Of a stretch of DNA of 64,000 bases, positions 1,757 to 64,000 are shown one piece after another. Each line of letters opens with the position of its first letter. Within the stretch, counting starts at the first letter, position 1. The notes under the pieces were generated by a model. The model had not been told where the DNA came from and searched no databases. It saw only the letters and a program-made list of their open reading frames with translations. Both the position numbers and the translations under genes were made by a program. The DNA is taken from the NCBI GenBank assembly GCA_015493745.1, contig WGCN01000029.1, positions 5,137 through 69,136 of the forward strand. Reading direction: 5' to 3'. This DNA comes from Calditrichales bacterium (GTDB lineage Bacteria > Calditrichota > Calditrichia > Calditrichales > J004).

Positions 1757-1760
1757 TGCT

Positions 1761-4069: not shown

Positions 4070-4070
4070 C

Positions 4071-5525: not shown

Positions 5526-5528
5526 AAT

Positions 5529-6506: not shown

Positions 6507-6548
6507 GGCCTTTGTTAGGTCTGTGGATCAACAGCTAATTTACAAAAA

Positions 6549-7613
6549 TTACAGCTTGTAATTCCATTCCTGTAAATAGGGTTCCCAATGCCGCTGTATT
6601 TTATCCACGGTCTCCCGGCTTAATGCCGGGTATTTGTTTTTTGTATAGCTTAAACCGTTCAGGTGTGTGCTTAAACCGGGCTTGAAGTCCTCGTAACCCG
6701 AAAGTCCGTGATATCGATATATCTTCTCCACGGTCTTAAGGGGTTCTTTGTCAAGTTCATCATAGGAAATCTCCAGTAATTTTTCCCCGGGGATAAGAGC
6801 GCGTTGTTCCAGATAGGCCGAGTGAATCTGCCTGTAACGTTCTATAATCCGGCCGGTGACGTCATAGTCCGGTTTTTGCAGGGAGGAACGGGCAATGGCC
6901 GTATCGTATAAGCGGATGGTGGAGTTAAACACCTCATAGGGATGACGGTGCAGGAAGATAAACCGGGCCGCGGGAAATATCTCATGGAGCTTTTTTATCC
7001 GGGCCGTATTGAGCGGAGACTTGGACAGAATCCGTTTCCCCGGGGTCATAAAGCGGATTTTATTAAAAAAGTGGATATAACTTTTACCCCAGTTCTCAAG
7101 CAGTTCCCGGTTACATGTTTCAAAAGTGGTATAGCGATCGTAATGTGTCTGTCTTTGAGGAAACAACCAGCCGACTATGGGAGAACGCAGGGTCAGTGCC
7201 GCCAGGGCAAACTCATCCTCCGCCGGAGAAAGAAGCGATACCTTTACGTTGTCCATCGATCGCTTTTTGGCGGTTCTTTCACGCAACAACGCATTATATT
7301 TTTGATGGATATGTAGAAAGGTATGGGGATTGTTTACCTGAAAGGTACGGGGAAAGGTGAATTGTTCATCCCGGCTCAGGAGGTTATGCAAAAAGGTGGT
7401 TCCACTGCGCCAATGGCCGATAATAAAAACAGGGGCATGCTCGCCGTTAACCGTTGTTTTTCCGGGATATATTTTCTTTTCCCGGGCCAGGAACCGGTGG
7501 TTTCTGACCGTCAGGGCACTTATCAGCGCCATCCGTGCCGGACGGGCCTTAAAGCGGTTCTCCTTTAGCAGCTTAAACCATTGTCCTGGTAAAAGCCCGA
7601 TAACACTATCCAT
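6549..7613 (-). CDS. Sulfotransferase family protein (tandem paralogue 1)
   Basis: PAPS 5'-phosphosulfate loop GHWRSGTTFLHNLL. SKSPLNTARIKKLHEIFPAARFIFLHRHPYEVFNS is the 3'-phosphate motif region. The longest ORF reaches 7643. The ATG at 7613..7611 is preferred for three reasons. It has an AGGGAG Shine-Dalgarno 5 nt upstream. It forms a TAATG overlap with the upstream paralogue's stop. It also makes the two paralogue N-termini nearly equal in length. Confidence 0.85.
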   Translation of the reverse strand: MDSVIGLLPGQWFKLLKENRFKARPARMALISALTVRNHRFLAREKKIYPGKTTVNGEHAPVFIIGHWRSGTTFLHNLLSRDEQFTFPRTFQVNNPHTFLHIHQKYNALLRERTAKKRSMDNVKVSLLSPAEDEFALAALTLRSPIVGWLFPQRQTHYDRYTTFETCNRELLENWGKSYIHFFNKIRFMTPGKRILSKSPLNTARIKKLHEIFPAARFIFLHRHPYEVFNSTIRLYDTAIARSSLQKPDYDVTGRIIERYRQIHSAYLEQRALIPGEKLLEISYDELDKEPLKTVEKIYRYHGLSGYEDFKPGLSTHLNGLSYTKNKYPALSRETVDKIQRHWEPYLQEWNYKL

Positions 7614-8710
7614 TAGTTCTCCCTGTTTAGAGGATAATTCCATTTATCAAAAGCAAAGGCCCATTCCCGGTTAATGCGCGATAGCCAGGGCTCGGCCACG
7701 GGGCTATATTTATTTTTCTTATAGCTTCCTATACTTTCAAGATGCGCTTCCAGCAAGGGCTTATAGGAGGCGTAGTCCTCAAAACCGAAATGCCGGAAAA
7801 TACGCTCGATCAGTTGGAGAGGCTGCCGGTCCAGCTCCTCATAACTGACATCCAAAAACTGATCCGCCGGTAAAAGGGCGCTCTCCGTAAAAAAATTCCG
7901 GTACATGTTGCGATAACGGCCGATAATTCCTTCACGCATTTGATTCGCATCGATGCTGTCGGTCATTTGCATGGGACGGACGGTTTTTTCATATAACTTA
8001 ACCGTTGAGTTGTATACATCATAGGGATTGCGATGGACATGGATAAAGCGTGCCCGCGGAAACATCTCCCGCAGTAGTTTTATGCGTGCCGTGTGTTGCG
8101 GAGACTTAAGGATAACCGGTTTGGGGTTCCGCGTGTTCAGCTTTTTCATGAAATAGAGAAACTGTTCCTTCCAGTAGTCGATTTCTTTTTGATCGACCTC
8201 TTCAAAGGTCAGATAGCGGTCATAAAAGGCCGTTGACTTAGGAAACACCCAGGCCAGCACGGGAGACATTAAAGACATTACCGCCAGGGCAAACTCATCC
8301 TCACCGGGATCGTTGAATTTGATCTTCATTTGATCCATGGGGCGTTTTTGTTCTCCGGCTTTGGCCATTTTTTCTTCCAGCATCGGGGCCGTGTAGAGAA
8401 ACGAGTGCGGGCTGTAGATGTCAAAAACCGTGGGAAAGGTAAATTGTTTCCCCAGGCTTAAAAGCTGATGCAGGTGTGAGGTACCGCTGCGCCAATGGCC
8501 CAAAACGAATACCGGTTGGGGATGGATGACCGCATTGCGGATTTTATCACCGTAGGCTTGCAACTCTTTTGCTTCATAACGGTCGTTACGGAAATAGGTG
8601 GTGATGGTGAGCTTAAGTGCCATCGCCAGCTTATCCGCCGGGATTTCCCGGAAATGGCGCCCGGTCAGTTTTAACCAGTTCTTTAGTTTTGTTCCGACAA
8701 GTATCTGCAT
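7613..8710 (-). CDS. Sulfotransferase family protein (tandem paralogue 2)
   Basis: GHWRSGTSHLHQLL PAPS loop; LKSPQHTARIKLLREMFPRARFIHVHRNPYDVYNS. Colinear with the 6549..7613 product over its full length, with clearly related sequence. Confidence 0.85.
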   Translation of the reverse strand: MQILVGTKLKNWLKLTGRHFREIPADKLAMALKLTITTYFRNDRYEAKELQAYGDKIRNAVIHPQPVFVLGHWRSGTSHLHQLLSLGKQFTFPTVFDIYSPHSFLYTAPMLEEKMAKAGEQKRPMDQMKIKFNDPGEDEFALAVMSLMSPVLAWVFPKSTAFYDRYLTFEEVDQKEIDYWKEQFLYFMKKLNTRNPKPVILKSPQHTARIKLLREMFPRARFIHVHRNPYDVYNSTVKLYEKTVRPMQMTDSIDANQMREGIIGRYRNMYRNFFTESALLPADQFLDVSYEELDRQPLQLIERIFRHFGFEDYASYKPLLEAHLESIGSYKKNKYSPVAEPWLSRINREWAFAFDKWNYPLNREN

Positions 8711-8725
8711 GGTTTTCTCTTCGGT

Positions 8726-9448
8726 TTATTGTGTTTGCCACAAGCGTAGCCGGGGGGCACGATGTTTTATGCAAAAGGCCCCGGCATAGGGCGGGGAAAC
8801 AGGCAGGGCCCGCAACAGCCAATCCCCGGCCTGATATCCCGGATGGCGGACATCAAGCAGACGGGCCTCTTGCCCCGGAGTCAGGGTGACGTCAAAAGAG
8901 TGCAGGGGCATGGAGAGACCGAGTCCCGCCGCCTTTATAAAAGCTTCCTTACGGGTCCAGGCATTGAAAAATCCTTCTTCCCGCTGTTCGTCATTCAAGG
9001 CCAGGAAAGCCTGCACTTCCTTGTTGGAAAAAAAACGCTCGGCAATTTTGACCGTGGTCGTTTCCTTGCGAAAGTGTTCAATATCCACTCCCACCGGTGC
9101 CAGGGGGCTGATGGCGACAAGTCCCTTCTTCCCGGAGTGGGAGACGTTAAAGAAAAAGGGAGAGCTCGCCCAATAGGGTTTTCCCTGTTTGTTATATTCA
9201 AACTCTATCCGTGCCGGGGCGAGGCCGCTAAAGCCTCCCAGCCGTTCCTTCAGATAACCGCGGGTAATGGTATAGGCCCGTCGGTCCCTCTCAAAATAAA
9301 AACGCGCGGCCCGCGCCTTCTCCTTATCGGAAAGCAGGGCTTCAAACCGCGACAGGGAGGGGTAATCCTCAAAATCCAGCAGCCAGATGAAAAGTTCATT
9401 ACCGGCCGGTTGCTCTCCTTTGTAGTGCTGCCACATTACGGGTTTCAC
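8726..9448 (-). CDS. Sfp-type 4'-phosphopantetheinyl transferase
   Basis: Motifs GKPYW, FNVSHSG, VGVDIE and FFNAWTRKEAFIKAAG. The ORF-track start is a GTG; an in-frame ATG lies 12 nt downstream at 9436. Confidence 0.9.
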   Translation of the reverse strand: MKPVMWQHYKGEQPAGNELFIWLLDFEDYPSLSRFEALLSDKEKARAARFYFERDRRAYTITRGYLKERLGGFSGLAPARIEFEYNKQGKPYWASSPFFFNVSHSGKKGLVAISPLAPVGVDIEHFRKETTTVKIAERFFSNKEVQAFLALNDEQREEGFFNAWTRKEAFIKAAGLGLSMPLHSFDVTLTPGQEARLLDVRHPGYQAGDWLLRALPVSPPYAGAFCIKHRAPRLRLWQTQ

Positions 9449-9454
9449 GGAAAG

Positions 9455-10222
9455 TTACAGGGCCATGACGGCGCTGAGATCACGCATGATCAGTTCCAGT
9501 ATTTGTGCCGTATGTTTTTGCAGAAAAAAATGACCTCCGGGAAACATGCGCACGGAAAAAGAGGCGGTGGTATAGCCCTGCCAGGCATCCAAATGTTCCC
9601 GGGGCGTGCTTTCATCTTCCAGACCGCCGAGAATGGTCATGGGGATATTCAACGGCGGACGGCTTTGATGCACATAGGTTTCCACCATCTTAAAATCGGC
9701 GCGGATGATAGGCAGCAGCAGTTCCATCAGCTCCTTGTGTTGCAAAATTTCCGGTGGCGTGCCTTCGAAGCTGCGTATCTTTTCCCAAAAATCCTCATCG
9801 TTTAATTGATGAATGGGTTCTTCCCGGTCATTGAGGTGCGGTGCGCTGCGTCCGGACAGGAAAAGGAACGCCGGTTCGTTGTTATAACGGGCGGCCAGAT
9901 GATGGCTGAGTTCATAAGCCAGCGTAGCTCCCATGCTGTGTCCGAAAAAAGCGTAAGGCCGGTCCAGTTCGCCTTGAATGTTCTCGGCAATCTGTTTTAC
10001 CAGATCGGGTAAATGGGTCACCAGCGGTTCCATCAGACGCTGTCCCCGTCCGGGAATCTCCAGAGCTATGGTCTCAACGCTTTCGGGAAGGAGGCGGCCC
10101 CATTCCCGGTAAGCGACACTGCTGCCCCCGGCAAAGGGCAGGCAGATCAATTTTAATTTGGAATTCCGTTTTATTACGCTCCTGACCAACCATGGATTTT
10201 GAGTGACGTGCATTGTTTTCAT
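9455..10222 (-). CDS. Type II (editing) thioesterase
   Basis: LICLPFAGGSSVAYREW, nucleophile elbow GHSMGA, and a C-terminal GGHFF. The ~255-aa size is typical of stand-alone NRPS/PKS TEII enzymes. Confidence 0.9.
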   Translation of the reverse strand: MKTMHVTQNPWLVRSVIKRNSKLKLICLPFAGGSSVAYREWGRLLPESVETIALEIPGRGQRLMEPLVTHLPDLVKQIAENIQGELDRPYAFFGHSMGATLAYELSHHLAARYNNEPAFLFLSGRSAPHLNDREEPIHQLNDEDFWEKIRSFEGTPPEILQHKELMELLLPIIRADFKMVETYVHQSRPPLNIPMTILGGLEDESTPREHLDAWQGYTTASFSVRMFPGGHFFLQKHTAQILELIMRDLSAVMAL

Positions 10223-10834
10223 CTACCTTGCTTCTTTTCGATTGTAATAATAATGTCCCCAGGCGGTGATGACCGAGCCCAGGCTGGCCAGGGCCATATC
10301 CTTATGGGCGTCCCACACGTCGCCCTGGGTACCCAGATAGGCCTGCCCCAGATCACCGCCAAAAAGTTCCGCCACCAGCCATTCGATCAATTCATAGATC
10401 ATGGAGGTGGACATGATCAGGGTGACCGGCAGCAGATATTTTATAAACCCCTTTAGATTGAAGCGCGCCACCAGCCACTCCATCACCGGGATGGTAAACA
10501 AAAAGCCGTAGAGGAAATGCACCAGCCGGTCAAATTGGTTGCGTCCGGGGCCTAAATCCCAGCCGAACAGAGTGGCGGCCCATTCCTTATACGGCACATT
10601 GGCATAGGTGTAGTGTGAGCCCAGTACATGGAAATAAAGGAATAGAAACAGCATCACATAGGAAGAAACAGAGAGCATCTTCCTTTGATGGCTGTACCAT
10701 AACACCGGTAAAAAAAGAATAACCAGTATATTTTCCAGCAGCCAGTCCTTGCGGTCGAAAGGGGCGACGGCCGCCCAGATCCATTCCAAAACAAATAGGA
10801 TTATCAGAAGGCGCAGTAATTTTTTTTCATCCAC
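10223..10834 (-). CDS. Small polytopic membrane protein (possibly YjdF/DUF2238-like)
   Basis: 203-aa ORF with several hydrophobic helices (LLRLLIILFVLEWIWAAVAP, ILVILFLPVLWY, VMLFLFLYFHVLG). GTG start. No gap to the TEII gene. The family name is from memory only. Confidence 0.5.
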   Translation of the reverse strand: MDEKKLLRLLIILFVLEWIWAAVAPFDRKDWLLENILVILFLPVLWYSHQRKMLSVSSYVMLFLFLYFHVLGSHYTYANVPYKEWAATLFGWDLGPGRNQFDRLVHFLYGFLFTIPVMEWLVARFNLKGFIKYLLPVTLIMSTSMIYELIEWLVAELFGGDLGQAYLGTQGDVWDAHKDMALASLGSVITAWGHYYYNRKEAR

Positions 10835-10942
10835 AATGCTGTCCCTGCCTTAAATAAACCGTGACTCGGGTTCTTAACCGGATTTCCCGACAATACAGGG
10901 GCATAACCGGTAAATAAATATCTGCTAAAACAGTCCTGGAAC

Positions 10943-10964
10943 CATCGCCGGTAAACCGGCGATG
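10943..10964 (-). terminator. Perfect 9-bp stem / 4-nt loop hairpin 7 nt downstream of the MbtH-like gene stop
   Basis: The + strand reads catcgccgg-taaa-ccggcgatg. On the transcript it is followed by GUUCC rather than a U tract, so terminator function is uncertain. Confidence 0.3.
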
Positions 10965-10971
10965 AAAAGGT

Positions 10972-11184
10972 CTAGTTTTGCGCGTCCATTTTTTCGCGCA
11001 GGCTTTTAGGCCGCATATCGGTCCAAACCTCTTTTACATAGTCCAGGCACTCCTGCTTGCTGCCGGATTTACCGGCATCTTTCCAACCCGGTGCGTTTTC
11101 ACGGTCGGCCGGCCAAATTGAGTATTGCTCTTCATCGTTAACAACAACCTTGTAAACGGTTTTGTCTTCGCGTTCTTCACTCAT
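10972..11184 (-). CDS. MbtH-like protein
   Basis: 70 aa carrying the signature [28 protein letters not shown]...[15 protein letters not shown]. 4-bp ATGA overlap with the MFS gene. Confidence 0.95.
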
Positions 11185-12596
11185 AATTGACTCCTTGTTT
11201 TTTTGAATTGTTCTTCAATGAAACGTTGTTTTTGTTCTAAAATCTGATCCTTGTGTACTTTTTTTATGGTGTAGCTAAATCCGGTATGGCCGCGTTGTTC
11301 CGGTGTTTGATAGGATATAAAACGCCGGAAATCGGAACTCAGCGATATCAGTATCACCGTGACCATGATGCCCCCGCCGGCGATGGAGTAGATTACGCTG
11401 ATGTCTTTGTCGAAAAAGTCATACATAAAGCCGCCCAGGGCCATACCCAGGGGAGCAATGGCTCCGGAAAGGGTGGTCAGCGTGCCGAAAACGCGTCCCC
11501 GTATCTTGCTGGGGGTGGTGATCTGCATCAGGGTAAAAATGCTGATGGTACTGAAACCATTCATCACGCCACCGATAAAAATAAGCCCCATGGCCTGCTC
11601 CGCCGTGCTGACCCGGCCCAGAAGAATGTATCCGATCGCTTCGAACATTAAAAAGAGAATCAGCAGAATCTTACGTCCCGCCCCGTGAACATTAAAGATG
11701 CTGTACAATACCGTTCCCGCCAGGGCGCCGAGACCGAAATCGATTAAAAGATAGCCGTACCACTGGTCGCCCAGCTTTAAAAAGTCGCGTACATAAAATA
11801 TGAGCAAAATGATAATCGGTGTGGAAAAAAAGGCGGTGGCGATGGAGAGATAAAGCAGCTTCTTCAAGCCTCGGTTTTGGCCGATATAGCGCAATCCTTC
11901 CCCGATGTCACTTTTAAAAGCTTTGAGATAGGCGGCAAACCCCCTGGCCTTTTCCGGCAGGCGCTGCGGGATTTTGATAAAGGACTCGCTGAGCGCCGAC
12001 AGCAGATAACTGATGCCGTTGGCAATGACCAGCACCGGCAAGCCTAAAATCATCAACAGTTGGCTGCCGAAAAAATAGCCGAAGAACTGGCTGATTTTTT
12101 CCGAAAACTTCCCCATGGAGTTGGCGCCGGCGATACGCTTCTCCGGTACCAGGTCGGGGATGGCGGCATTGATGGCCGGGGCAAAAAAAGCGCGCATGGT
12201 GGACATGGTCATCCCGGCAATAAAAACACCGGCGATGCTGTAAAGCGGCGGCATGTCCAGATAAAAGGTGGCGGCCAAAACCAGCATGGCCAGACCGCTG
12301 ATGATATCGGTACCGACTATGATGGCCTTGCGCGGAAAGCGGTCGGCCACGGCCCCGCCCAACGCACTCATCAGGATCATCGGCAGGGCCGTAACAGCGC
12401 CGAAAATACCCATGATGGTGCCCGAGTCGGTCATCTCCTTTAGCCATATCATGATGGCAATGTTGTAAACGCTGTTTCCCAGACGACTGACAAATTGCCC
12501 CTGAAACAGCATCAGGTAGTTTCGGTTAAACAACTTGTTGCTCGTAGACAGGCTGCGTGCTTCGTCTTTCAGAATCGCGGTTTGGTTTTGACTCAT
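11181..12596 (-). CDS. MFS transporter (DHA3/EntS-like putative exporter)
   Basis: 471 aa and about 12 hydrophobic helices. MFS-type loop [17 protein letters not shown]-terminal [22 protein letters not shown]. Confidence 0.85.
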
Positions 12597-12690
12597 ATTT
12601 TCTACTTTATGCTGTACTTTTTGCCCGATAAACTTAACTTTTTTTTACTATGGAACAAAAAAATTAGTTTACGGCGCCGTCTTCCTTTTG

Positions 12691-15600
12691 TTAACCTGTT
12701 TTTTCCCGGAGCAGCCGGTCCATAGCCGCCGCCAGTTCCCGCACATCGGGATTTTGCAGCATCGCTATATGGTCTCCGGGCACATCAATGATGTCGACAC
12801 GGTCACACAACTCTCCCCAACGCAAATCCTCTTTATCACGGTTCTCTGCGGAACGAAACAGGTGGATGGCGCCCGGCAGCGGTTTATGTTTGTATTTGAG
12901 CCAGGCCTGAATCTGGGTTTCGTTTACCGTGATATAGCGCTGAAAGTCGGCCACCCGGACAAAACGGGGAACCACTTTTACCTTTTTGGCCTTTTTCAAT
13001 ACCACTTTAAACTGCTCATCCTCGGGCAGCTTGCGCAGGGCCGCGGTATCCACCTTGAAGTAACGCTTGAACATCTCCGTCAGCATTTCGGCCGTATCTT
13101 CGGGACTTTTATGTTCTACGAAGGGACCCTGATCCAGTTGCATCAACAGGGACACCTCATCTCCGCGTGCGCGGAGCTGCCGCGCCATTTCATAGGAGAT
13201 GATCACCCCCAGCGACCAGCTCCCCAGAATATAGGGGCCTTCGGGCTGTTCTTCCTTCAGGGCGCTGATATAGGCCTCGGCCATCTCCTCCACGGTTTTA
13301 TGCAAGGCGGTTTTGCCGTCCAGCCCCTGGGCCTGAATACCGTAAAAACGCAGACCCGTGGTCAGGCGCCCGGCCAGTTCCTGATAGTGGTGTACGGCCC
13401 CTCCGGAGGGGTGCACAAAAAAGATGGCCGGTTTTTTTGTATCGCCCTTGGCCAGCAGCATCAGTTTTACACCACTTTCTTCTTTGCTTTCTTCCGTCAG
13501 CAGGGCGGCCAGGTGTTCGATGGTCGGTTCCTTGAAAAAGTCGATCAGGGTGACGTCTTTTTTAAATTGCTTCTCAATGGCGTTCAGCAACTGCATGGCC
13601 ATCAGTGAGTGGCCGCCCAATTCAAAAAAGTTATGGCGCACACCGATTGGATTGATACCGAGAATGGTTTCCCAGATTTCGGCCAGGCGTGTTTCCATGG
13701 CATTGCGCGGGGCGATAAACTCGCTGCCGCTCTCTTCCGGTCGTATGGCGGCTTCGGGCAGGGCGCGGTAATCCACCTTGCCGTTGGGCGTCAACGGTAT
13801 CTGTTCGATGCCGGTAAAAACGGCGGGTATCATATAGTCCGGTAACTGTTCGCTCAGGGCCGATTTTAAAGCGGCCGCATCAGCTTTTTCCTTCCAGATG
13901 ACATAAGCGGCCAGATAGGACAGGCCGTTGTCATCGCGTTGCAGGCTTAAAACGGCATCCTTCACGGCGGGGTGCGCGCGCATCCGTGCTTCGATCTCAC
14001 CCGGCTCAATGCGGAAACCGCGCACTTTCAGCTGGCTGTCCGCCCGGCCCAGGAATTCCAGATGTCCGCTTTCCAGCCAGCGCACCTTGTCCCCGGTACG
14101 GTACATACGCGCGCCGGGTTTTCCGGAAAAGGGATCGGGCAGGAAACGCTCCGCCGTCAGAGCGGGGCGGTTCAGGTAACCGCGGGCCAGATTGGTTCCG
14201 GCCAGATAAAGCTCGCCCGGAATACCGGTAGGGCTCAGGTTCATATTTTCATCCAGAACATAGAGCCGCACATTGCCCAGGGCGGTGCCGATGGGAATGG
14301 TGGCCCGGCTGTCGGCGTCGCGTACCTCATAGCGGCTGGCACATACGGTGTTTTCCGTCGGGCCGTAGGCGTTAAGCAGGCGGCATTTGGCTGACCAGTG
14401 ACGCGCCAGATCCGGAGCCAGGGCTTCACCGGCGGAGATAAGGGTATGCAGATCCGGCAGCGCTTCATCCTTGATTATGTTAAGCAGCGATGGTGGCAGG
14501 GTTACCGTGGAGATGCGGCTGTCACGCATCAGGTTGGTCAGACGGGTTGTGGATGTTTGCGTGGCCCTGTCCATCAGGTAGAGAGCCGCGCCGCTGACCA
14601 GCGTGGTAAATATTTCCGATACGGAGGCGTCGAAGCTGAAACTGGCAAACTGCAGACAGCGCCGTTCCGGAGTCAGTTGGAAGTCCTCGATCTGCCGCAG
14701 GGTCAGGTTGCACAAACCGCGGTGGGTAAGCATGGTCCCCTTGGGCCGGCCGGTGGATCCGCTGGTATAAATGACATAAGCCAGGTTATCCGGTTGATTG
14801 AGATAGATCGGATTTTCCGTCTTGTTGCCGTAGGTGCCGGGAAGGGCTTCGTCCAGCAAAATGAGCCGGGCGTCCAGGTCCCGGAAGCGATCCTTAAGCG
14901 AACGGGAAGTCAGTAGCCAGGGACTGTTGGCGTCCTTTAAGATGTAGGCGATACGTTCCAGCGGATAGTCCGGGTCCACGGGAACATAAACCCCGCCGGC
15001 CTTGATGACGGCCAGCAATCCCACCACCATCTCCATGGAACGTTCCACCGATATGGCCACCAGTTTTTCCGGCCCGACACCGCTCGCGCGCAGTAAATGG
15101 GCCAGGCGGTTGGCCTGGGCGTTCAACTCCCTGAATGTCAGGGAACGATCCTTAAAAACCACCGCCGTTTGATGGGGATAACGCAGTACCGTTTCTTCAA
15201 ACAGATGCTGGATCAGGGGCTGTCCGGGAGCGGGATGCTGCTCGCCCCGCCCGAGGGCGAGAACCTTTTCCCGTTCCTTTTCCGGCAAAAGGGAGAGCCG
15301 GAGCAGCGGACGGTCGTACTTTTCGGCCAGTATATCCAGAAGATAGGCAAAGCGTTCCTGCATGCGCCGGATGGTTTTTTCACGGAACAGATCGGTATTG
15401 TATTCAAACTCCACCATCAAGCCGTGCTCGGCCTCCATGGCAATCAGCGACAGATCGTATTTGGCGATTTTTTGTTCCGCTTCGATGGGACGTATGCGGC
15501 TGTCCTCCATGTCCACTTCACCGCTGGGGGTGTTCTGCAGGACAAACATCACCTGGAAAATGGGGGAGTGGCTCATATTTCTTTCCGGCTGAAGTATCTC

Positions 15601-18600
15601 CACCAGTTGTTCGAAGGGCAGATCCTGGTGACCGTAGGCATCCAGAGTATCCCGGCGGGTGCGGGTCAGAAGCTGGCGGAAGGTCAGTCGGTCGTCAAAG
15701 TCCGCGCGAAAGACCAGTGTGTTCACGAAGAAACCGATCAGCGCTTCCGTCTCCGAGCGGGTACGATTGGCAATGGGCGAACCGACCAATATCTCATCCT
15801 GCCCGCTGTAGTGGCGCAGAAAGGTTTGAAAGGCGGCCAAGAGGGTCATGAACAGGGTTACCCCTTCCCGCTGCCCAAAGGCTTTCAGCTTTTCCAGCGT
15901 CTCCTTTTCCACGGTGAAGGGAATGCTGTCGCCATTAAAGGTCTGTACGGCGGGGCGTTGGAAATCCAACGGCAGTTGCAGGGCCGGCGGGTTAAGGCCG
16001 ATGTGCCGTTTCCAATAGTCGATCTGTTTTTGCAGCACCTCATCCTTTAGCCAGGAGCGCTGCCAGACGGCATAATCGGCATACTGCAGGGGCAACGGCG
16101 GCAAGGGGTTTTCCCGGCCGCGCTCAAAGCTTTGATAGAGAATGGTGAACTCACGCATCAGGATGCCGACGCTCCAGCCGTCGGAAATAATGTGATGCAT
16201 GGTGAACAGCACCAGATGGTCATTGGGCGCTATGATGACTATTTTGGCGCGGAACAGCGGTCCCAGCTCCAGGTCAAAGGGCTCATTGGCTTCATCATTG
16301 ACCAGCCGCCGGGCCTCTTCCTCGCGGATATCCTCCGAGAGACCTGACAGGTCGATAACATCCACTTCGGTGATGGAGCGCGGATGAACATGCTGGTAGG
16401 GTTGTCCCTCTTCCACGTTAAAGGTGGTACGCAGCACTTCATGGCGCATGATCAGCGCCTCAACGGTTTTTTTGAAGGCCTCGATGTTCAGCTTGCCGCG
16501 GTGGCGGATGGAGGCCGGGATATTGTAAAAGGATTGATCCGGCGCCAGTTGATCGAGAAACCACAACCGTTGCTGGGCAAAGGAGAGCGGCAGCCGCCGG
16601 TCGCGCTCCACGGGCACCAGCGGAATGGACCGGCCGGCGCCCCCCTGGCGGGCGCTTTGCAGCACCAGAGCGGTGAAGGCGCTGATGGTCGGCGCCTCAA
16701 ACAACAGGCGCAGCTCCACTTCGGTTTCAAAACGATCGCGTACCCGGCTGACCAACTGCGTGGCCAGCAGCGAATGGCCGCCGATTTCGAAAAAGTTGTC
16801 ATGGATACTGATCTTTTCCTGTTTCAGTACCTCGCACCAAATGTCGGTCATCTTTTGCTCATCGTCGTTCCTCGGCGCCTGGTAGGGGCGGCGGGCGTCT
16901 GTTTCCGTCCATTGCGGTTCCGGCAGGGCGCGCTTATCCACTTTTCCGTTGGGCGTTAAGGGAAAGGACTGTAAATGCACATAGGCCGCCGGTTGCATGT
17001 AGTGGGGCAGGCGGCCGGCCATATGGGCGCGTAAGGCGGCGGCGTCAATCTTTTCCGGGGCGACGTAGTAGGCTGCCAGCTGTTGCTGATCACCGGCATT
17101 GCGCACCATGATCACGGCATCGGCTATACCGGGATAGTGGCTCAGTTGATGCTCAATCTCACCGGGCTCAATGCGAAAGCCGCGCAGCTTTAACTGTTCA
17201 TCCATGCGTCCTAAAAATTCGAGTACGCCGCTGTCCAGCAGCCGCACGCGGTCACCGGTGCGGTACATACGTGCACCGGGAATCCCGCTGAAAGGTTCCG
17301 GGACAAAGCGTTCCGCCGTCAGCTCGGGTCGTTTAAAATATCCGCGGGTCAGGCTGTCCCCGGCCAGATACAGTTCGCCGGGCACGCCAAAGGGTTGGGG
17401 GTGCATGCGGCTGTCCAGCACATAAACCCGGACATTGTCAATGGGCGACCCGATGGGCACGGTAGACTGCTCCGCCGGCCGGTTGAGCACAAAGCGGGTG
17501 GCGCAGACGGTGTTTTCCGTGGGCCCATAGGCATTAATCAGGCGCCGGTTATTGCTCCGCCAGCGGTTGGCCACCTCCATCGGCAGCGCTTCCCCGGCGG
17601 AGACCAGGGTATCCAGTTCCGGAAAATCTTCCGGGTTGAGCAGGGCCGACACCGAAGGAGGCAGGGTGATCGTCGTGATATGCTCATCGCGCATCAGCTT
17701 AACCAGACCGGGGCCGGGCATCATCTCTTCCTTGTCGGCCAGCACCAGAGTGGCCCCGCTGACCAACGTGGTGAAAATTTCCGATACGGAGGCGTCAAAG
17801 CTAAAACTGGCAAATTGCAGGCAGCGCTTGTGTTCGTTAAGCAGAAAGTCCTTGATCTGAAAGGTGGTCAGGTTACACAGGCTGCGATGTTCCACCATGG
17901 TGCCCTTGGGCCTGCCCGTGGAGCCCGAGGTGTAGATCATATAGGCCATGTTGCGCGGATGGTTGACGGGGGCGGGATTGGTCTCCGGGAATTCCCCGTC
18001 GATTTCCTCGTCCAGAAAAAGGATGGTATCCGGCCCGGCCTCCCGCAACACACCCTTCATCCGCTGCATCGTTTTTTGCGTGGTCAGCAGCATGCCGATG
18101 CCGGCATCCTCCAGAATGTAGCGGATGCGCTCATCGGGATATTCGGGGTCTATGGGCACATATACGCCACCGGCCTTGAGCACGGCCAGCAGGGCGATAA
18201 CCATATGGGGTGAGCGCTCCAGGGAGATGCCGACCAGCTGCTCCGCTTTCAGTCCCGCCTTACGCAACTGATGGGCCCGGCGGTTGGCCGCCCGGTTTAA
18301 ATCGGCAAAAGTAAAGCTCTGATGTTTGTAACGCAGGGCCTCCTTTGTGGCAAAGGTTTCCGCGGTCTGCTCAAATAGCTGCTGGATGAGATGGTTATCG
18401 GGAAAGGGACGCGACTCCCCGGCAAGCAGACGGGCCTGACCGGCAAGGGCGGCCGCATCCATCAGACTCAGGGCGCCGATGGGTTGAGCGGGGTTTTGGG
18501 TCACCTGTTGCAATAACAGCTTAAAATGTTCCATTAGCCGCCGGGCCGTGGCTGCTTTAAAAAGATCGGTGTTGTATTCCAGTTGCGCCTTAAGGGTGGA

Positions 18601-26247: not shown

Positions 26248-26285
26248 CGATTTTTAAATCTCGTCTATGGTTATACCGTATGGGT

Positions 26286-32669: not shown

Positions 32670-32726
32670 AGAAATAATCGTAAATCCTCATTGATTAGCT
32701 TTTAAAAAGGAGCCCGGCGGCGCCGG

Positions 32727-46989: not shown

Positions 46990-46998
46990 ATAGGCTTA

Positions 46999-47946
46999 TT
47001 AATTCCAATCTTCATCGCTGTATAGTTTATCGCTTACCGGGGAGGTTAAATGACGAATCGTATCTATTTCCCCGGTGGATAGCTGGGACTGCCATATCTT
47101 TATGTTCTCCAGACTGTTGCGCCGGAGAGTGTGCATTTTACCCTCCTTAGCCGCCGTGCGGTTTTGGGCGCCCGTGAATTTTTCTATTTGTCTTATTATC
47201 GAATCATCATAGACAAGACCAATTTCCCGGTATATTTTTTTAAAACTTTCGATAGGTTTCCTGGAAAGGTCTTCATGGCGGTAAAAAAGCCAGTCCTTGT
47301 GTCCATCGCGATACCGCAGCATAACCGTGGTAAAGATATTCCACACCAGGGCCTGGGTTTCGATGCTAAAGGGAATGAACTCTTGCGGCGCCCATTTGAG
47401 TATCTCGTCTCTGAAGTCCGCCAGCACTTCCTCCATAAGCGCCTCCTGCCGGGCCAGCCAGTCAAAGTTAAAGCCCCACTTCATCCTTTTCATACTGTTG
47501 ATGTATGCCGCGGGATGGCGGAACAGAAAAAGCATGCGGATATCGAGCCGGCGGCCAAGCCAGGGGGCCATGAAGATGGCAAAGGGATCCTGAATAACGG
47601 GGCGCATATGTTTTTTAAGGCGATGGTTGAGGGTAAAGTAACGCACCAGGTGATACAAATGGTACTTGGGCGAGGATGACTGCTTCATGTATATCTTTAA
47701 TTCCTGCCCGCTCAGACTAAGCCCCAGTCCGCTGCGCATTTTAAGAAACAACTCTTCATCCACTTCGGGAAAAAACGGGAAATTGGTACCGGCCCCAAAC
47801 AGGTGGATCGGTTCCCTTAAAAAATTAAACGGTTCCAGAACGTAAAACATCTCCGGTGACAAGGCGATCATTTTCGCCGTCCAGGTTGTACCGGATCGTT
47901 GCAGGCCGCTGACCAGAAGTGGTTTTTTGGTGTAATTTTCAGACAT
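46999..47946 (-). CDS. Sulfotransferase family protein (third free-standing copy, between two NRPS genes)
   Basis: 315 aa. PAPS loop SGLQRSGTTWTAKM near the N-terminus. LFLFRHPAAYINSMKR is the 3'-phosphate motif region. 9-bp gap to the downstream NRPS start and 203-bp gap to the upstream NRPS stop. Confidence 0.8.
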   Translation of the reverse strand: MSENYTKKPLLVSGLQRSGTTWTAKMIALSPEMFYVLEPFNFLREPIHLFGAGTNFPFFPEVDEELFLKMRSGLGLSLSGQELKIYMKQSSSPKYHLYHLVRYFTLNHRLKKHMRPVIQDPFAIFMAPWLGRRLDIRMLFLFRHPAAYINSMKRMKWGFNFDWLARQEALMEEVLADFRDEILKWAPQEFIPFSIETQALVWNIFTTVMLRYRDGHKDWLFYRHEDLSRKPIESFKKIYREIGLVYDDSIIRQIEKFTGAQNRTAAKEGKMHTLRRNSLENIKIWQSQLSTGEIDTIRHLTSPVSDKLYSDEDWN

Positions 47947-48149
47947 GGGTTACGCTTCTGTTTAGTATTTTTCTCTTGAATGCCGGTATCACATCCCCGC
48001 CGTTTCTTCCCGATAAAACAGGATTCTCGGGGAAAAGGGCAATTTATCCGTTTTTTCCGCTTTGCCGTATTCCGTATGTCACAAAATAAGCTGTAAAACT
48101 TTTATCATCATTTGCTTTTTTTGCAGAGCCCTTAAACCCCGGCAGGCGG

Positions 48150-57056: not shown

Positions 57057-57079
57057 AAAGGTTGTTAATTCCTGTCGTT

Positions 57080-60000
57080 CTAATCTTCATTTAATAGGGC
57101 GTTGAGATCGTCATCGGATAAGTCGGTGACGTCTCCCAGTAAATCGGCCAGTTCCTCTTCATCCAGGGATTCGGTCAGCGCCTCGGTTATGGCGGCGGCG
57201 ATACCGTCCACGGTGGGGTTCTCAAACAGCACACGCAGGGGGACTTCCACCGCGAATTTTTCCTGTATCAGGGACATTACCTGTGTTCCCAGCATGGAGT
57301 GGCCGCCCAGTTCGAAAAAATTGTCATAAACCCCCACTTTCTCAATGCGCAACACCGAGGCGACGATGGCGGCCAGTTCTTCTTCCGTTTCGGTGCGCGG
57401 CGCCACATATTCGGCGCTGAGCTGGCTGCGCAGGTCTTCGGGAACCGGCAGGGCGCGGCGGTTGACCTTGCCGCCGGGAAGCATGGGGATGGTGTCCAAC
57501 TCGATAAAAGCCGCGGGTACCATGTAAGGCGGCAGTTGTTTTTGCAGGAAGTCTCTTAATGCGCTGATCTCCGGCCGGCTACCGGCATGGGGGCGGAAAT
57601 AGCCCACCAGTTGTTTTTCGCCATGACCATCCCTTTTAACCGCCACCAGGGCCGTATCCAGATCGGGATGCGCGGCCAGGATGTTTTCCACCTCGCCGGG
57701 TTCGATTCGGAAGCCGCGAATTTTTACCTGCTGATCCACGCGGCCCATAAATTCCAGATTCCCGTCATCATGCAGGCGCACCTTGTCTCCCGTGCGATAC
57801 ATCCGCCCCTTCTCCGCAAACGGATGGGGGACAAAAGCGGCGCTTTCCTCCTCCGGACGGTTCAGATAACCCAGGGCCAGATTGTCGCCGGCAATGCACA
57901 GTTCGCCGGGCAGACCCGGGGGCAGCAGGTTGCGGTGGTTATCCAACACATAAAGCTCGCGGTTGGCGTTGGCCGTGCCGATGGGGATACTGTGATAGCG
58001 TTCCAGGACAGTCTCATCGGCGGGCACGTCATAACAGGTGGCGGTAATGACCGTCTCCGTGGGCCCGTAGGCATTGATCAGTCTTACCTGCCGGAAAGGC
58101 GAGGCCCACCACTGTTTTAAGGCGGCGGGGCTCATGGCATCGCCACCGGAAATTACCAGACGCAGGGTGGGACAGGTGATTTCCTTTTCGTTTTTTTGCA
58201 GATAGGCACACCACAGGTTCCAGTAAGCGGTAGTGGGATTGACCACGGTCAGGCCGTATTCGTTTATCTTTTCGGCGAAGCGTTCCACGGGCCAGATATC
58301 CTCATCACGCATAACGATGGTGGCCCCGGCCAGCAGGGGGGATAATATCTGCTCCAGGGAGGCGTCAAAGTTCATGGCCGCGAATTGCAGGGTCACATCA
58401 TCCGCGCTCAGGGTAAAGTATTGCGTCATGTCCACGGTATGGTCGGCCATGGCGCGATGACTGACGAGCACGCCCTTGGGTTTCCCAGTGGAGCCGGAGG
58501 TATAAATCAGATAGGCGGGGGCCTCTTCCCCCGGCGCGTCCCCGGGCTCTGCCGCGGCAGCCTGATCATTTGTATCCATTACCGTTAAGCGCTCGCCGGA
58601 AAACAATTCCTTTCCCAAAGAGGCCAGTTCTTCTTCCACCATCAGGGTGACGGCTCCGCTGTCTTCCAGCATAAATTGTAAACGCTCCCGCGGGTAGGAC
58701 GGGTCTATGGGTAAATAGACGGCGCCGTGTCCCATAACCGCCAGCATGGCGGCCACGGTGTGTGGTGAGCGCCGGGCCAGCACGGCCACTACCTGACCGG
58801 GTTGGATATGTTTATCCCGCAGTTGCTTCCTCAGACTATAAATCCGTTTTCTCAGCCCGGCATAGCTCATCGAAGTGTTGCCGGCACGCAGGGCCGTTTT
58901 TTCGCCCCGTAGTTCACATTGTGCCAGTATGGAAGGGATGAGAAGTTCCGTGGCCCGTACCCGTCTGCTGTTTTTCTTACTCCGGTGCAACGCTTGTTCT
59001 TGTTCGGCGGAGCTTAGCAGGGGCAGCAGTTCGATTTCCCGGGTGGCCTCCCGGCTCATCTCCCGCACGATGCGTTCAAAGTGGCGGATCATGCGTTTAA
59101 CGGTTTCGCCCTTAAACAGATCGGTGTTATACTCGACCTTGCCATCGAGGCGTTCATTCTGTTCCGTAAAATTAAAAATGAGATCAAATTTTGTGGTTTT
59201 GTTTTCAAACTCAAGCAGTTCCAGTTCAACGCCGGGCAATTTCAGGGCGCCCACGGGGGCATTGTTAAACACCAGCATGGTCTGGAACAGGGGAGAGTGG
59301 CTCATGCTTCTTTCGGGATCGAGTTTCTCCACCAGGGTTTCAAAGGGCAAATCCTGATGACCGTAAGCGCCGATCATGGTCTCCTTTACCCGTTTTAACA
59401 AAGTGGCCACGCTGGGATTGTCGCGCACATCGGCACGGATGACCAGGGTGTTGATAAAAAAACCGATCAGCGGCTCGGTTTCGGCGCGGTTGCGGTTGGC
59501 GATGGGGGTGCCGACGGCAAAATCATCCTGGCCGCTATAACGCAGCATCAGAATCTCAAAAGCGGCCATTAAGGCCATGAACAGGGTGACGTCATGGGCG
59601 TCGGCCAGCTTTTTTAAGGCTGCCGTGTTTTCGGTATCAAGCTGAAAGGTAATGTAATCCCCGTTATGGCTTTGATAGGCCGGCCGGGGAAAGTCCGTGG
59701 GCAGGTCAAGCACCGGAGGCAGACCGTCCAGCTTTTCCGTCCAGTAATCCAGTTGTTTTTGCAGGGTTTTCCCGGAGAGCCATTTACGCTGCCAGGCGGC
59801 AAAATCGGCATACTGTATGGTCAAGGGGGTAAAGTCAACCGTTTTTCCTGCGGCCAGGGGCGGGTAGAGCTCCATAAACTCTTTTATCAGCACACCGGTG
59901 GACCAGTTGTCCGATACAATGTGATGCAGGGTCAATACCAGCACATGTTCCTTGTCATGCTGGCGAAACAGACGAACACGTATCGGGGCCTTATCCCTCA

Positions 60001-60433
60001 GGTTAAAGGAATGGCCGGCCTCCGCCTTGATGGCCTCGTGAATATCTCCGGTGGCGCCGTGATCGATAATTTCAAAATCCAGCTTAAAGTCACTATGAAC
60101 TTTTTGCCGGGCTTCGGCGCCCTCTTTAAAAAAAGTGGTGCGCAGCACTTCATGCTTGTTCACGATCAGCTCAAAGGCCCGGCGCAGGGCCTCAACATTA
60201 AGCTCTCCGGTAATGCGCACCGGCGAACAAATATTATAAAGCGGACTGCCCGGTTCCAGCTGATCCAGGAACCATAAACGCTGCTGGGCAAAGGAGAGGG
60301 GAAAGCTCTCCTCATCACCGCTGCGGGGCAGTATGGGCATTTGTGAAAGATCCACCCCCTGTTCCTGAAGCATCATCTCTAACACCGCCCGTTTTTCAGG
60401 GGGCAGCTTGGCTATTTGGTCGTAAATCGACAT
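57080..60433 (-). CDS. NRPS, module 1 (C-A-T)
   Basis: FPLSFAQQRLWFLDQLEPG, HHIVSDNWS, YTSGSTGKPKG, carrier GGHSMLGTQ. Hand-extracted code DAENIGAITK; the nearest canonical code I recall is Lys, DAESIGSVCK. Acidic tail DLSDDDLNALLNED. Confidence 0.95.
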   Translation of the reverse strand: MSIYDQIAKLPPEKRAVLEMMLQEQGVDLSQMPILPRSGDEESFPLSFAQQRLWFLDQLEPGSPLYNICSPVRITGELNVEALRRAFELIVNKHEVLRTTFFKEGAEARQKVHSDFKLDFEIIDHGATGDIHEAIKAEAGHSFNLRDKAPIRVRLFRQHDKEHVLVLTLHHIVSDNWSTGVLIKEFMELYPPLAAGKTVDFTPLTIQYADFAAWQRKWLSGKTLQKQLDYWTEKLDGLPPVLDLPTDFPRPAYQSHNGDYITFQLDTENTAALKKLADAHDVTLFMALMAAFEILMLRYSGQDDFAVGTPIANRNRAETEPLIGFFINTLVIRADVRDNPSVATLLKRVKETMIGAYGHQDLPFETLVEKLDPERSMSHSPLFQTMLVFNNAPVGALKLPGVELELLEFENKTTKFDLIFNFTEQNERLDGKVEYNTDLFKGETVKRMIRHFERIVREMSREATREIELLPLLSSAEQEQALHRSKKNSRRVRATELLIPSILAQCELRGEKTALRAGNTSMSYAGLRKRIYSLRKQLRDKHIQPGQVVAVLARRSPHTVAAMLAVMGHGAVYLPIDPSYPRERLQFMLEDSGAVTLMVEEELASLGKELFSGERLTVMDTNDQAAAAEPGDAPGEEAPAYLIYTSGSTGKPKGVLVSHRAMADHTVDMTQYFTLSADDVTLQFAAMNFDASLEQILSPLLAGATIVMRDEDIWPVERFAEKINEYGLTVVNPTTAYWNLWCAYLQKNEKEITCPTLRLVISGGDAMSPAALKQWWASPFRQVRLINAYGPTETVITATCYDVPADETVLERYHSIPIGTANANRELYVLDNHRNLLPPGLPGELCIAGDNLALGYLNRPEEESAAFVPHPFAEKGRMYRTGDKVRLHDDGNLEFMGRVDQQVKIRGFRIEPGEVENILAAHPDLDTALVAVKRDGHGEKQLVGYFRPHAGSRPEISALRDFLQKQLPPYMVPAAFIELDTIPMLPGGKVNRRALPVPEDLRSQLSAEYVAPRTETEEELAAIVASVLRIEKVGVYDNFFELGGHSMLGTQVMSLIQEKFAVEVPLRVLFENPTVDGIAAAITEALTESLDEEELADLLGDVTDLSDDDLNALLNED

Positions 60434-60471
60434 ATGTGTTTTCTTTTTCCTTTAAAACCAGCGGTTGCTAA

Positions 60472-63400: not shown

Positions 63401-64000
63401 GCAATGTCTGCCGGATTTTGCTCCGGGTGGGCTTCAATATGATCCACCAGGCGCCGGGTTTGTGCATCAAGGGCCGCCGGGGTCTTGGCCGAAAGGGTCA
63501 ATAAAAAAGGCCCCGGTGATGACATGCTTTCAACCGGGGGGGGCTCCTGGATGATCACATGGGCGTTGGTACCGCCGATGCCGAAGGAGCTTATGGCCGC
63601 CCGGCGGGGCAGACCGTTTTTGACAGGCCAGTCCTGTAAGCGGTTATTGACATAAAAGGGGGTCTGGCTAAAGTCGATTTGCGGATTGGGACTTTGATAA
63701 TGAACCGTGGGTGGAATCTGTTTATGCTGCAAGGCCAGCACGCTTTTGATAAAACCGGCGATTCCGGCGGCGGCGTCCAGATGACCGATATTGCTTTTGA
63801 CCGATCCGATGGCGATGCTTTGCGGCTGCCACTCTTCCTCAGTGAAAATTTGTTTTAAGGCGGCCACTTCGATGGGGTCACCCAGTTCGGTACCGGTGCC
63901 GTGGCACTCGATATAACCTATATCCGCGGGAGAGATTCCGGCCAGGGCCTGGGCCGTGGCGATGGCGTCAGCCTGACCTTCCACGCTGGGGGCGGTATAA
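60472..64000 (-). CDS. Type I PKS module (KS-AT-KR-carrier); the 5' end lies beyond the right edge of the window
   Basis: The reading frame is open to position 64000, so the M at 63984 is internal. KS C-terminal motifs ECHGTGTELGDP and NIGHLDAAAG. AT motifs GQGSQ, GHSIGE and HAFHS (malonyl type). KR motifs ITGGTGNLA, AKVKG and YGTANAY. Carrier FFDLGGNSL. Confidence 0.95.
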   Translation of the reverse strand, partial: YTAPSVEGQADAIATAQALAGISPADIGYIECHGTGTELGDPIEVAALKQIFTEEEWQPQSIAIGSVKSNIGHLDAAAGIAGFIKSVLALQHKQIPPTVHYQSPNPQIDFSQTPFYVNNRLQDWPVKNGLPRRAAISSFGIGGTNAHVIIQEPPPVESMSSPGPFLLTLSAKTPAALDAQTRRLVDHIEAHPEQNPADIAHTLIVGRKAFSQRRFVLAHSAREAVELLRGSDPKRLLGMGHKKDPHPPKTAFLFSGQGSQYALMGKGLYQKYSVYRNAVDECAESLQPHLNRDIRDLILADDKDRETAALHLMQTQYTQPALFVTEYALSRLWESFGVTPQAMAGHSIGEYVAAHLAGVFSLDDALKLVALRGRLMQSLPEGAMLSVPLDEHAVAPYLSGEVVIGAINSKGSTVLSGTGEAISAVAEALKAKGIECRSLHTSHAFHSPMMDPILKEFEQVCAQIPMHKPQIAYLSNVSGDWITAEEATSPSYYARHLRSTVRFNDNLSTLYQDFDGILLEVGPGKTLNSLAVRHPSKDLNRVILSSMRHPREEMDDVSFFLTTLGRFWLAGLPLKPETLFEDEKRLRVPLPTYPFEKKPYLLAIPKGGAKVIGSGNNPRQWFYAPYWKRSFENPRAEVSGYLLTLGDLPAELKDVFANHRLNLKSYSADDKGENLIFSPDSGEDLAQNFNRLKSALSELSFDSPRHLFLITTQAFKVLPDEKGVPAIAALTALLRSLVVEQAAFSFSWVDSDRQSLERIPALLDGKTFNNKLTALRNGQLFTQEFEHLPAKSDGAFWDNFNQPVILITGGTGNLAALYIDYISQKCSARFYLLSRSGFPEAKTWNAPGALNEAQQRKAEIYARAEKRGSRISFLQADISVEGALEKVWPADLSPDILIHAAGLVGNSIIVPVAGRTDGSAEETFSAKVKGSDHVVKFAREHNVPRVFLQSSLSALLGGYGFGAYGTANAYMDALALSHEQAGLITVNWDGWIFNPGDSGHGIKAEQAPALFDLLFSQTHINQMAVSTENLDERFEKWQYGRAAEGENDAEERTLYDRPNLPTPYVAPRNDLEKEIATVWQQLLGIGQVGIHDDFFDLGGNSLMGTQLISRMRERFKVDVPVKSLFENPTIAGVAVQIEQARSTTEKQEDMLSDMLSKVENMSEEEIKAMLKRNDS
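60580..60798 (-). other. Carrier domain of the PKS module, with PCP-like sequence
   Basis: YVAPRNDLEKEIATVWQQLLGIGQVGIHDDFFDLGGNSLMGTQLISRMRERF. This follows the same YVAPRN...FF.LGG.SL pattern as the NRPS carriers in this window. Confidence 0.75.
60910..61593 (-). other. Ketoreductase catalytic subdomain
   Basis: VILITGGTGNLAALY Rossmann motif, then K (AKVKG), S (LQSSLSA) and Y (AYGTANAY). There is no LDD motif after HAAG (HAAGLVGNS), which suggests an A-type KR, at low confidence. Confidence 0.7.
62350..63252 (-). other. Acyltransferase domain, malonyl-CoA type
   Basis: FLFSGQGSQY; GHSIGE (Ser codon 62959..62961); HTSHAFHSPMM, i.e. the HAFH motif associated with malonate rather than YASH. 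Confidence 0.8.
63541..64000 (-). other. KS domain, C-terminal part
   Basis: YIECHGTGTELGDPIE, SVKSNIGHLDAAAGIAG and GGTNAHVIIQEPP. Confidence 0.85.

Follow-up and report, generated by a model that had tools for sequence, protein, structure and literature searches.

A curacin-type sulfotransferase within a peptide elongation module of a conserved PKS-NRPS cluster from vent Calditrichia, predicted to make a sulfated lipopeptide

What does a sulfotransferase of the curacin type do in the middle of a peptide assembly line? The question is raised by a stretch of 64,000 nucleotides from a Calditrichales bacterium (NCBI GenBank assembly GCA_015493745.1, contig WGCN01000029.1, positions 5,137 to 69,136 of the forward strand; hereafter the window, numbered from its first base), which encodes a hybrid of polyketide synthase (PKS) and nonribosomal peptide synthetase (NRPS) with a sulfotransferase (ST) domain fused between the carrier domain of module 2 and the condensation domain of module 3. 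The PKS-NRPS cluster is real and conserved, and its host is an uncultivated deep-sea-vent Calditrichia bacterium. Our reading, to which we give a probability of about 70%, is that a synthetase primed by a fatty acyl-AMP ligase (FAAL) makes a sulfated lipopeptide of 14 amino acids with a statine-like unit, and that the sulfate is retained after the CurM-type ST has acted.

The synthetase genes lie on the minus strand, and the domain order observed in Pfam scans is KS(partial)-AT-KR-ACP / C-A-T / C-A-T-ST-C-A-T-E / small ST / C-A-T-C-A-T / C-A-T-C-A-T-E / C-A-T-C-A-T / (C-A-T)x4-TE, where C is condensation, A adenylation, T carrier, E epimerization and TE thioesterase. The window thus holds 13 C-A-T modules, two E domains and one TE, all with intact core motifs, in agreement with the domain order and the 13 NRPS modules that the original prediction had read from motifs. 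Its PKS module stood as to AT-KR-T and fell as to a full KS within the window, since the KS is represented by its C-terminal half alone and the active-site Cys lies past base 64000. From the right end of the window leftwards, the synthetase features, found with Pfam and code alignment unless stated otherwise, are as follows.

60472 to >64000, minus strand: PKS module gene with Ketoacyl-synt_C, KS-AT linker, Acyl_transf_1, KR and PP-binding, cut by the window end
57080 to 60433, minus strand: NRPS module 1, C-A-T, code DAENIGAITK (ApnA-A1-like), C motif HHIVSDNWS
48150 to 57056, minus strand: NRPS modules 2-3, C-A(Ser DVWHISLVDK)-T-ST-C-A(Ser DVWHISLIDK)-T-E
52737 to 53669 (residues ~1130-1440 of the modules 2-3 product, g3), minus strand: in-line sulfotransferase between T2 and C3, of CurM/olefin-synthase type by PDB sequence match
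48150 to 49589, minus strand: E domain of module 3, motif HHTVVDAVS (Pfam); the next NRPS gene begins with a DCL-type C
46999 to 47946, minus strand: g4, stand-alone sulfotransferase of 315 aa inside the NRPS operon (borderline Pfam Sulfotransfer_3 plus predicted fold)
40525 to 46989, minus strand: NRPS modules 4-5, C(DCL)-A(Ser DVWHISLVDK)-T-C-A(Phe DAWTIAAVCK)-T
32727 to 40550, minus strand: NRPS modules 6-7, C-A(Ser DVWHISLVDK)-T-C-A(Gln-like DAQDLGMVDK)-T-E
26286 to 32669, minus strand: NRPS modules 8-9, C(DCL)-A(DASTIVGIGK)-T-C-A(Phe DAWTIAAVCK)-T
12691 to 26247, minus strand: NRPS modules 10-13 (DVGEIGSIDK, Orn; DATKVGEVGK, Asn; DASTVAAVCK, Tyr; DASTIAAVCK, Tyr) plus TE
about 12754 to 13425, minus strand: TE domain, C-terminal in the modules 10-13 gene

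The in-line ST is a clear homolog of the STs of CurM and olefin synthase (OLS). Its membership of this family is observed in PDB sequence matches to the CurM ST (4gbm, E = 7.1e-71) and the OLS ST (4gox, E = 6.1e-67), and in alignment it is 41% identical to the CurM ST. It keeps the PRSGST and RHPY loops for 3'-phosphoadenosine-5'-phosphosulfate (PAPS), the Glu of PPEL and the Lys of VDK, the last two of which we take to be Glu60 and Lys133 of CurM, whereas the His that follows PPEL in CurM is an Asp here. With the ST domain as query, a homolog search gave mainly ACP-ST didomain proteins of ~430 aa together with some NRPS fragments, and the protein of the window itself was not among its matches. 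The didomain proteins form a large family, 45-52% identical to the in-line ST (e.g. P0012, P0041 and P0076), from cyanobacteria, Thiothrix, Ideonella, Rubrivivax and many metagenomes, and we know of no function assigned to them. CurM-type STs also occur in two other NRPSs: P0211 ends A-T-ST-TE, a CurM-like off-loading order on an amino-acid module, and P0168 has T-ST-C after a DCL-type module.

What is handed to module 1 depends on whether the PKS module starts the chain or extends it. The contig locus around the protein of 1117 aa (L007) reaches 6.4 kb past base 64000, and the full PKS gene read from it encodes 1461 aa, with its start at window-equivalent 64857. The KS motifs VQTACSTS, HGTGT and NIGH keep the Cys/His/His residues, and the AT carries GHSIG and HAFH, so that the predicted malonyl type holds. 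Pfam finds KS, AT, KR and ACP in this gene, without DH or ER. The KR (aa 1091-1275 of the full protein) has the GGTGNLA NADPH motif and the Ser/Tyr region, and its Pfam match scores 79 bits versus 177 bits for the KR of the upstream module. It has neither the LDD motif of B-type nor the W of A-type KRs, so the configuration of the statine-like hydroxyl is not predictable.

The gene upstream settles the position of the PKS module. It encodes 3963 aa, lies on the same strand and stops 5 nt short of the PKS gene. Its precomputed Pfam families begin with AMP-binding, AMP-dom_DIP2-like (FAAL type), PP-binding, KS and AT, and Pfam finds ER-KR-ACP-C-A-T in its last 1856 aa, the A domain having the Tyr-like code DASTIAAVCK of module 13. 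With C-A-T at the end of this gene, the PKS module has an NRPS module on either side and is therefore internal, and an arrangement for a statine-type unit is present: a C-A-T end upstream, KS-AT-KR-ACP, and a next gene that begins with C. Judged from this order, the PKS module should extend the Tyr-like residue into a gamma-amino-beta-hydroxy (statine-like) acid. P0133, a fragment of an ortholog (55% identity), shows ER-KR-ACP-C-A-T in this order too, with the code DASTIAAICK. A metagenome scan with the upstream protein gave just one locus, the unrelated L012 at 29% identity, and the longest of the 120 proteins listed in a homolog search had 3243 aa, the 3963-aa protein itself not being among them.

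The loading module that the original prediction had foreseen past base 64000, a FAAL with an ACP, is therefore matched by the start of the precomputed family list, whereas its '3-hydroxyacyl tridecapeptide' is contradicted by the same gene, which makes the PKS internal and raises the peptide to 14 amino acids. In the window alone, KS-AT-KR-ACP does stand before 13 NRPS modules, as would be expected if this PKS made a 3-hydroxy fatty acyl starter N-linked to a tridecapeptide. With a complete Tyr-like C-A-T ending 5 nt away on the same strand, in a gene that, by its precomputed families, itself begins with FAAL-ACP and a reducing PKS module, such a starter is now hardly credible.

The specificity codes were read directly from alignments (MAFFT) of each A domain to GrsA-PheA, whose numbering was verified at D235, T278, I299, A301, A322, I330, C331 and K517. 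All 13 of the codes derived by hand in the original prediction were reproduced letter for letter. The A domain of module 1 has ApnA A1 of the anabaenopeptin synthetase (PDB 4d4g) as its best single-stretch solved match, and DAENIGAITK shares 7 of 10 positions with the ApnA A1 codes DVESIGAIAK (Arg/Tyr) and DVEDIGAIEK (Arg) (PMC5311044, Table 2). From these codes it differs at positions 236, 278 and 331, and for this reason no substrate can be assigned to module 1; a basic or large polar residue (X) is plausible from the code. LgrA came out as the top PDB match of this domain through a sum over two A domains and was rejected as evidence for Gly.

Gene order is consistent with assembly order. 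Both genes that follow an E domain open with IYPLSPMQQGMLFH, and the C domains with which they begin are 42% identical to each other and 21-27% identical to the remaining C domains. Set apart as a pair, they fit the DCL type and colinearity of the genes, as had been proposed. Three C domains have HHxxxD(N/M/D)WS in place of HHxxxDGWS, namely that of window 57080-60433 (~aa 170), that of the upstream gene (L007:1-5571) and the second C of 12691-26247. In the two that accept PKS-ACP donors (HHIVSDNWS and HHIISDMWS), the change is kept in L009, L010, L011 (orthologous loci described below) and P0133, and HHxxxD(N/M)WS could be a signature of C domains with polyketide-ACP donors.

Put together, these elements suggest the following assembly. 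Outside the window, the FAAL-ACP would load a fatty acid, the reducing PKS module would add one unit to it, and module 0 would join the acyl chain to a Tyr-like amino acid by condensation. The KS-AT(malonyl)-KR-ACP of the window would then add C2 and reduce it, giving a 4-amino-3-hydroxy-5-aryl-pentanoyl (statine-like) unit, after which the thirteen modules would add X(DAENIGAITK)-Ser-D-Ser-Ser-Phe-Ser-D-Gln-Z(DASTIVGIGK)-Phe-Orn-Asn-Tyr-Tyr. At module 2, the in-line ST would use PAPS to O-sulfonate the carrier-bound intermediate. Further sulfates would come from the three stand-alone STs (g4 with its TPST-like fold and two Stf-like proteins), with Tyr, Ser and the statine hydroxyls as candidate sites. 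The terminal TE would free the chain by hydrolysis or cyclisation and the MFS protein would export the product, while MbtH, the type II thioesterase (TEII) and the phosphopantetheinyl transferase (PPTase) would support the synthetase.

The placement of the in-line ST is conserved, as observed in orthologous clusters on at least seven other contigs. A GTDB species genome scan gave L009, L010 and L011, all three in metagenome-assembled genomes (MAGs) named Calditrichia, Calditrichaeota or Calditrichaceae, and look-ups anchored on g4 homologs gave L013, L016, L017 and L018. The order C-A-T / C-A-T-ST-C-A-T-E recurs in all seven (in L009 as far as it reaches), with identities over the ST-C junction of 81% (L009), 69% (L010) and 65% (L011), and the PKS gene lies upstream in all three GTDB loci. 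In L010, L013, L016, L017 and L018, g4 and the next NRPS genes follow, L009 ending before that point. The modules 2-3 protein is 43-68% identical to that of the window in the six loci holding it whole (L010, L011, L013, L016, L017 and L018) and locus GC varies from 41 to 56%; that the same gene order persists at such distances indicates that the order is under selection. The module 1 code (hereafter X1) and the HHIVSDNWS motif of the post-ACP C domain are kept wherever checkable.

The residue ahead of the ST is mostly a hydroxy amino acid. The pre-ST A domain is a Ser domain in 7 of 9 loci and a Thr domain in L008, and counted by domains, Ser or Thr stands ahead of 8 of the 10 in-line STs in Calditrichia-type loci. 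L008 (GCA_024275455.1, JAJRZB010000166.1, ~1425-7543, from a 29%-GC MAG) has the Thr code DFWNIGMVHK followed by a tandem T-ST-T-ST-C, and a stop or frameshift lies in the linker between its two T-ST copies. In L011 (CAZIBE010000001.1, 6557-21139), the ST is followed by a Gln-like module and E, and there is no g4 gene.

The most likely target of the in-line ST, by analogy, would be the beta-hydroxyl of the Ser thioester on T2, because a Ser thioester is a 3-hydroxyacyl thioester and this is the position that CurM STs attack. Most likely the sulfate is also kept in the product. Retention is favoured because no eliminating partner is adjacent to the ST, three more STs are encoded, and the products of OciA (cyanopeptolin/oscillapeptin) and DysB (dysinosin) carry sulfated glyceric acid, which has been attributed to ST-containing NRPSs (PMC2533009, PMC6520454). 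Both the substrate of each ST and the retention of the sulfate are thus predictions.

The in-line ST could instead activate rather than decorate: a Ser sulfate formed on T2 would leave before or during the next condensation and give dehydroalanine, a ring or a cross-link. The family to which the domain belongs argues for this, as the CurM and OLS STs both create a sulfate leaving group and, of the two solved members, one belongs to the curacin pathway and the other to an olefin synthase. The Ser or Thr ahead of 8 of the 10 in-line STs fits as well, elimination from an O-sulfonated Ser thioester should be chemically easy given its acidic alpha-proton, and decorative sulfation could fall to the three other STs. 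However, neither a TE nor another known eliminating partner stands beside the ST, the next C domain has an ordinary HHIITDGWS, the ST of L011 follows a Val-like module, and in OciA and DysB the sulfate can stay in place after an NRPS-embedded ST has acted. We therefore regard activation as unlikely; if true, nonribosomal peptides would acquire dehydro-amino acids by a new route, with Ser or Thr activated by an ST and the sulfate leaving on-line.

Several observations count against the sulfated, Ser-modified lipopeptide that we prefer. Because STs of the CurM family are known to create leaving groups, the sulfate may not be retained. The orthologous ST of L011 follows the Val-like code DALWLGGTFK and a second in-line ST in the same locus follows a DAEHVGAITK module, while the unrelated NRPSs P0168 and P0211 have pre-ST codes other than the Ser/Thr codes found here, so that an ST may act on something other than the residue which its module adds. 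The codes DAENIGAITK and DASTIVGIGK come without a residue assignment and the KR of the PKS module without a stereotype, LDD and W both being missing. In the 3963-aa upstream product, the N-terminal 2107 aa were read solely as a precomputed Pfam family list, and a DH domain is presumed from the homolog P0140.

The L011 domains suggest a further possibility, that the in-line ST acts on another hydroxyl of the T2-bound intermediate, either the statine-like beta-hydroxyl, formed by the KR two modules before, or the side chain of X1. L011 keeps a motif-intact ST after a Val-like module, its second ST comes directly after a module whose code is related to X1, and the X1 code and the KS-AT-KR module are invariant upstream features in the orthologs; CurM STs, moreover, naturally use secondary alcohols derived from a KR. 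Yet Ser precedes the ST in seven loci and Thr in L008, the statine hydroxyl lies two residues from the thioester, unlike the CurM substrate, and the X1 code resembles the Arg/Tyr/Lys-type codes of ApnA A1, which give no secondary alcohol. We consider action on either of these sites quite improbable, and keep the Ser of module 2 as the preferred target.

Four sulfotransferases are encoded in total, one in-line and three stand-alone, as the multiple STs of the original prediction had implied. The stand-alone protein g4 has RSGTT and RHP motifs and only 12 detectable homologs. A PDB sequence search with it gave no match, and hhalign of two-sequence alignments gave a probability of 3%. The AlphaFold (AF2) model built from those homologs (pLDDT 80, pTM 0.82) has a sulfotransferase fold: all of the best 50 PDB matches listed by Foldseek are sulfotransferases, and the top ones are the human tyrosylprotein sulfotransferases TPST2 and TPST1 (E about 1e-7). 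This resemblance is a weak hint that g4 may act in peptide-Tyr sulfation. The gene is found at the same position in five other loci, and L008 has a g4 homolog (43% identity) elsewhere in its genome, and the 10 kb around it hold neither an NRPS nor a PKS gene.

The other two stand-alone STs, ST_A and ST_B, come after the accessory genes: in the Pfam scans the TE gene is followed by MFS, MbtH, DUF2238, TEII, PPTase and then the two STs. The helper genes (PPTase, MbtH, TEII and exporter) share an operon with the synthetase genes, running in the same direction at spacings of 0-137 nt, and all four accessory families named earlier from the translations were matched.

11181 to 12596, minus strand: MFS transporter, probable exporter (Pfam MFS_3, MFS_1)
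10972 to 11184, minus strand: MbtH-like protein (Pfam MbtH, E = 1.2e-22)
10223 to 10834, minus strand: DUF2238 membrane protein (Pfam DUF2238, E = 2.2e-48)
9455 to 10222, minus strand: type II thioesterase (Pfam Thioesterase, E = 2.5e-50)
8726 to 9448, minus strand: Sfp/HetI-type phosphopantetheinyl transferase (Pfam ACPS; NCBIfam HetI E = 7e-44, below the curated cut-off)
7613 to 8710, minus strand: ST_A, stand-alone sulfotransferase, mycobacterial Stf-like (Pfam Sulfotransfer_3, E = 6e-35; PDB 2z6v, 2zq5)
6549 to 7643, minus strand: ST_B, stand-alone sulfotransferase (Pfam Sulfotransfer_3, E = 4e-36)

ST_A and ST_B resemble the mycobacterial structures 2z6v and 2zq5 (described as Stf9 and Stf1), and ST_B is 41% identical to ST_A in alignment. 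The start of ST_B is ambiguous: the 364-aa open reading frame overlaps ST_A by 31 nt, and most public calls give 354 aa with a one-base overlap. Past ST_B, four more genes lie on the same strand (window 1761-6506). The first, 42 nt after ST_B, encodes a lipoprotein-like protein of 325 aa without a family match, and the other three encode a GAF-sigma-54 activator, a PEGA-domain Ser/Thr kinase and an unknown protein of 260 aa. The spacings among the four are 3 nt, 1 nt and a 4-nt overlap, and a protein with a type IX secretion system (T9SS) tail is encoded just past them. They may be regulators of the cluster or mere neighbours.

The whole cluster measures ~70 kb, from 6549 to about window-equivalent 76750, its start lying outside the window. 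All of its genes are co-directional on the minus strand, with spacings from slight overlaps to 203 nt, and very long minus-strand open reading frames run from ~12.7 kb to the right end of the window. Exact-protein look-ups placed the window, together with the sequence past base 64000, on a 163-kb contig from a vent metagenome (ENA ERZ23495238, REYS20-1_SAMN12239312_METAG-scaffold_12); several other assemblies also have contigs with window proteins, among them one labelled hydrothermal-vent metagenome and the MAGs GCA_011051485.1 and GCA_027047915.1. An assembly artefact or collapsed repeats were considered and rejected as unlikely, because the modules are only 60-74% identical to each other in DNA and, of 16921 bases compared with an independent assembly, 16903 match the window. 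The GC content steps up from 0.49-0.51 in the flanking and accessory genes (window 1-12000) to 0.54-0.60 in the PKS and NRPS genes (12000-64000), which could reflect the amino-acid composition of megasynthases or a foreign origin of the synthetase genes. Rfam and tRNA scans gave no match, and matches in a promoter scan were not above shuffled expectation.

Literature searches on the unassigned codes, biosynthetic gene clusters of Calditrichota, CurM-type STs beside C domains and O-sulfoserine peptides returned no counterpart cluster or compound, in line with the earlier remark that the cluster belongs to no recognised compound family. Their sole match was scleritodermin A, which has an N-sulfo, O-methyl serine. 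They likewise returned no characterised natural product from the phylum Calditrichota, which a 2026 survey just lists among the vent phyla with expressed NRPS clusters. That the cluster is kept on at least eight distinct contigs, several associated with vents, suggests a metabolite of ecological relevance. The arrangement and the phylum are unusual, and the product chemistry is entirely predicted; a poly-sulfated lipopeptide with a Tyr-statine unit would be an unusual chemotype, plausibly a protease inhibitor or surfactant.

The logic of the cluster is that of an ordinary modular PKS/NRPS. Synthetases primed by a FAAL, with an internal NRPS-PKS-NRPS step, make statine-type units such as those of the didemnin and grassystatin type. 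They share with our cluster C-A-T modules, a KS-AT-KR-ACP placed internally right behind an amino-acid module, a terminal TE, the helpers MbtH, TEII and PPTase and, as the family list of the upstream gene suggests, loading by FAAL-ACP. Our cluster differs in its host (Calditrichia), in its Ser-rich 14-mer and four sulfotransferases, and in its post-PKS-ACP C domains, which have HHxxxD(N/M)WS rather than DG. As far as sequence tells, its phylum, the T-ST-C placement of a CurM-type ST within an elongation module, four STs per cluster and a Tyr-derived statine-like unit at the lipid-peptide junction appear unlike anything found.

OciA and DysB share with our cluster an ST domain inside the NRPS, a likeness drawn from published descriptions, not from sequence comparison; the ST is fused within the NRPS polypeptide here and in eight related loci. 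The OciA and DysB STs have been reported beside a glycerate-loading (GA-loading or FkbH) domain (PMC2533009, PMC6520454), whereas Pfam scans of the window synthetases found no FkbH or GA domain and three additional STs are encoded. Theirs serve the N-terminal unit of short cyanobacterial peptides; ours belongs to an elongation module, in the order T-ST-C behind a Ser A domain. In CurM and OLS, as here, the ST is fused directly after a carrier domain holding a beta-hydroxy thioester, but here that carrier is the peptidyl carrier protein of a Ser-activating NRPS module. In place of their KS-AT-KR-ACP-ST-TE order, the ST lies within C-A(Ser)-T-ST-C and is followed by the C domain and 11 further modules, with the sole TE at the end of these and no decarboxylating TE, and the product is not expected to have a terminal alkene. 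Lacking both a TE after the ST and a glycerate-loading domain beside it, the cluster belongs to neither the CurM/OLS nor the OciA/DysB type. The T-ST-C order places a curacin-type ST in a peptide elongation module, and with it come two questions: whether such enzymes can use aminoacyl or peptidyl carriers, and whether the sulfate is a charge-bearing decoration or, as in curacin, a leaving group.

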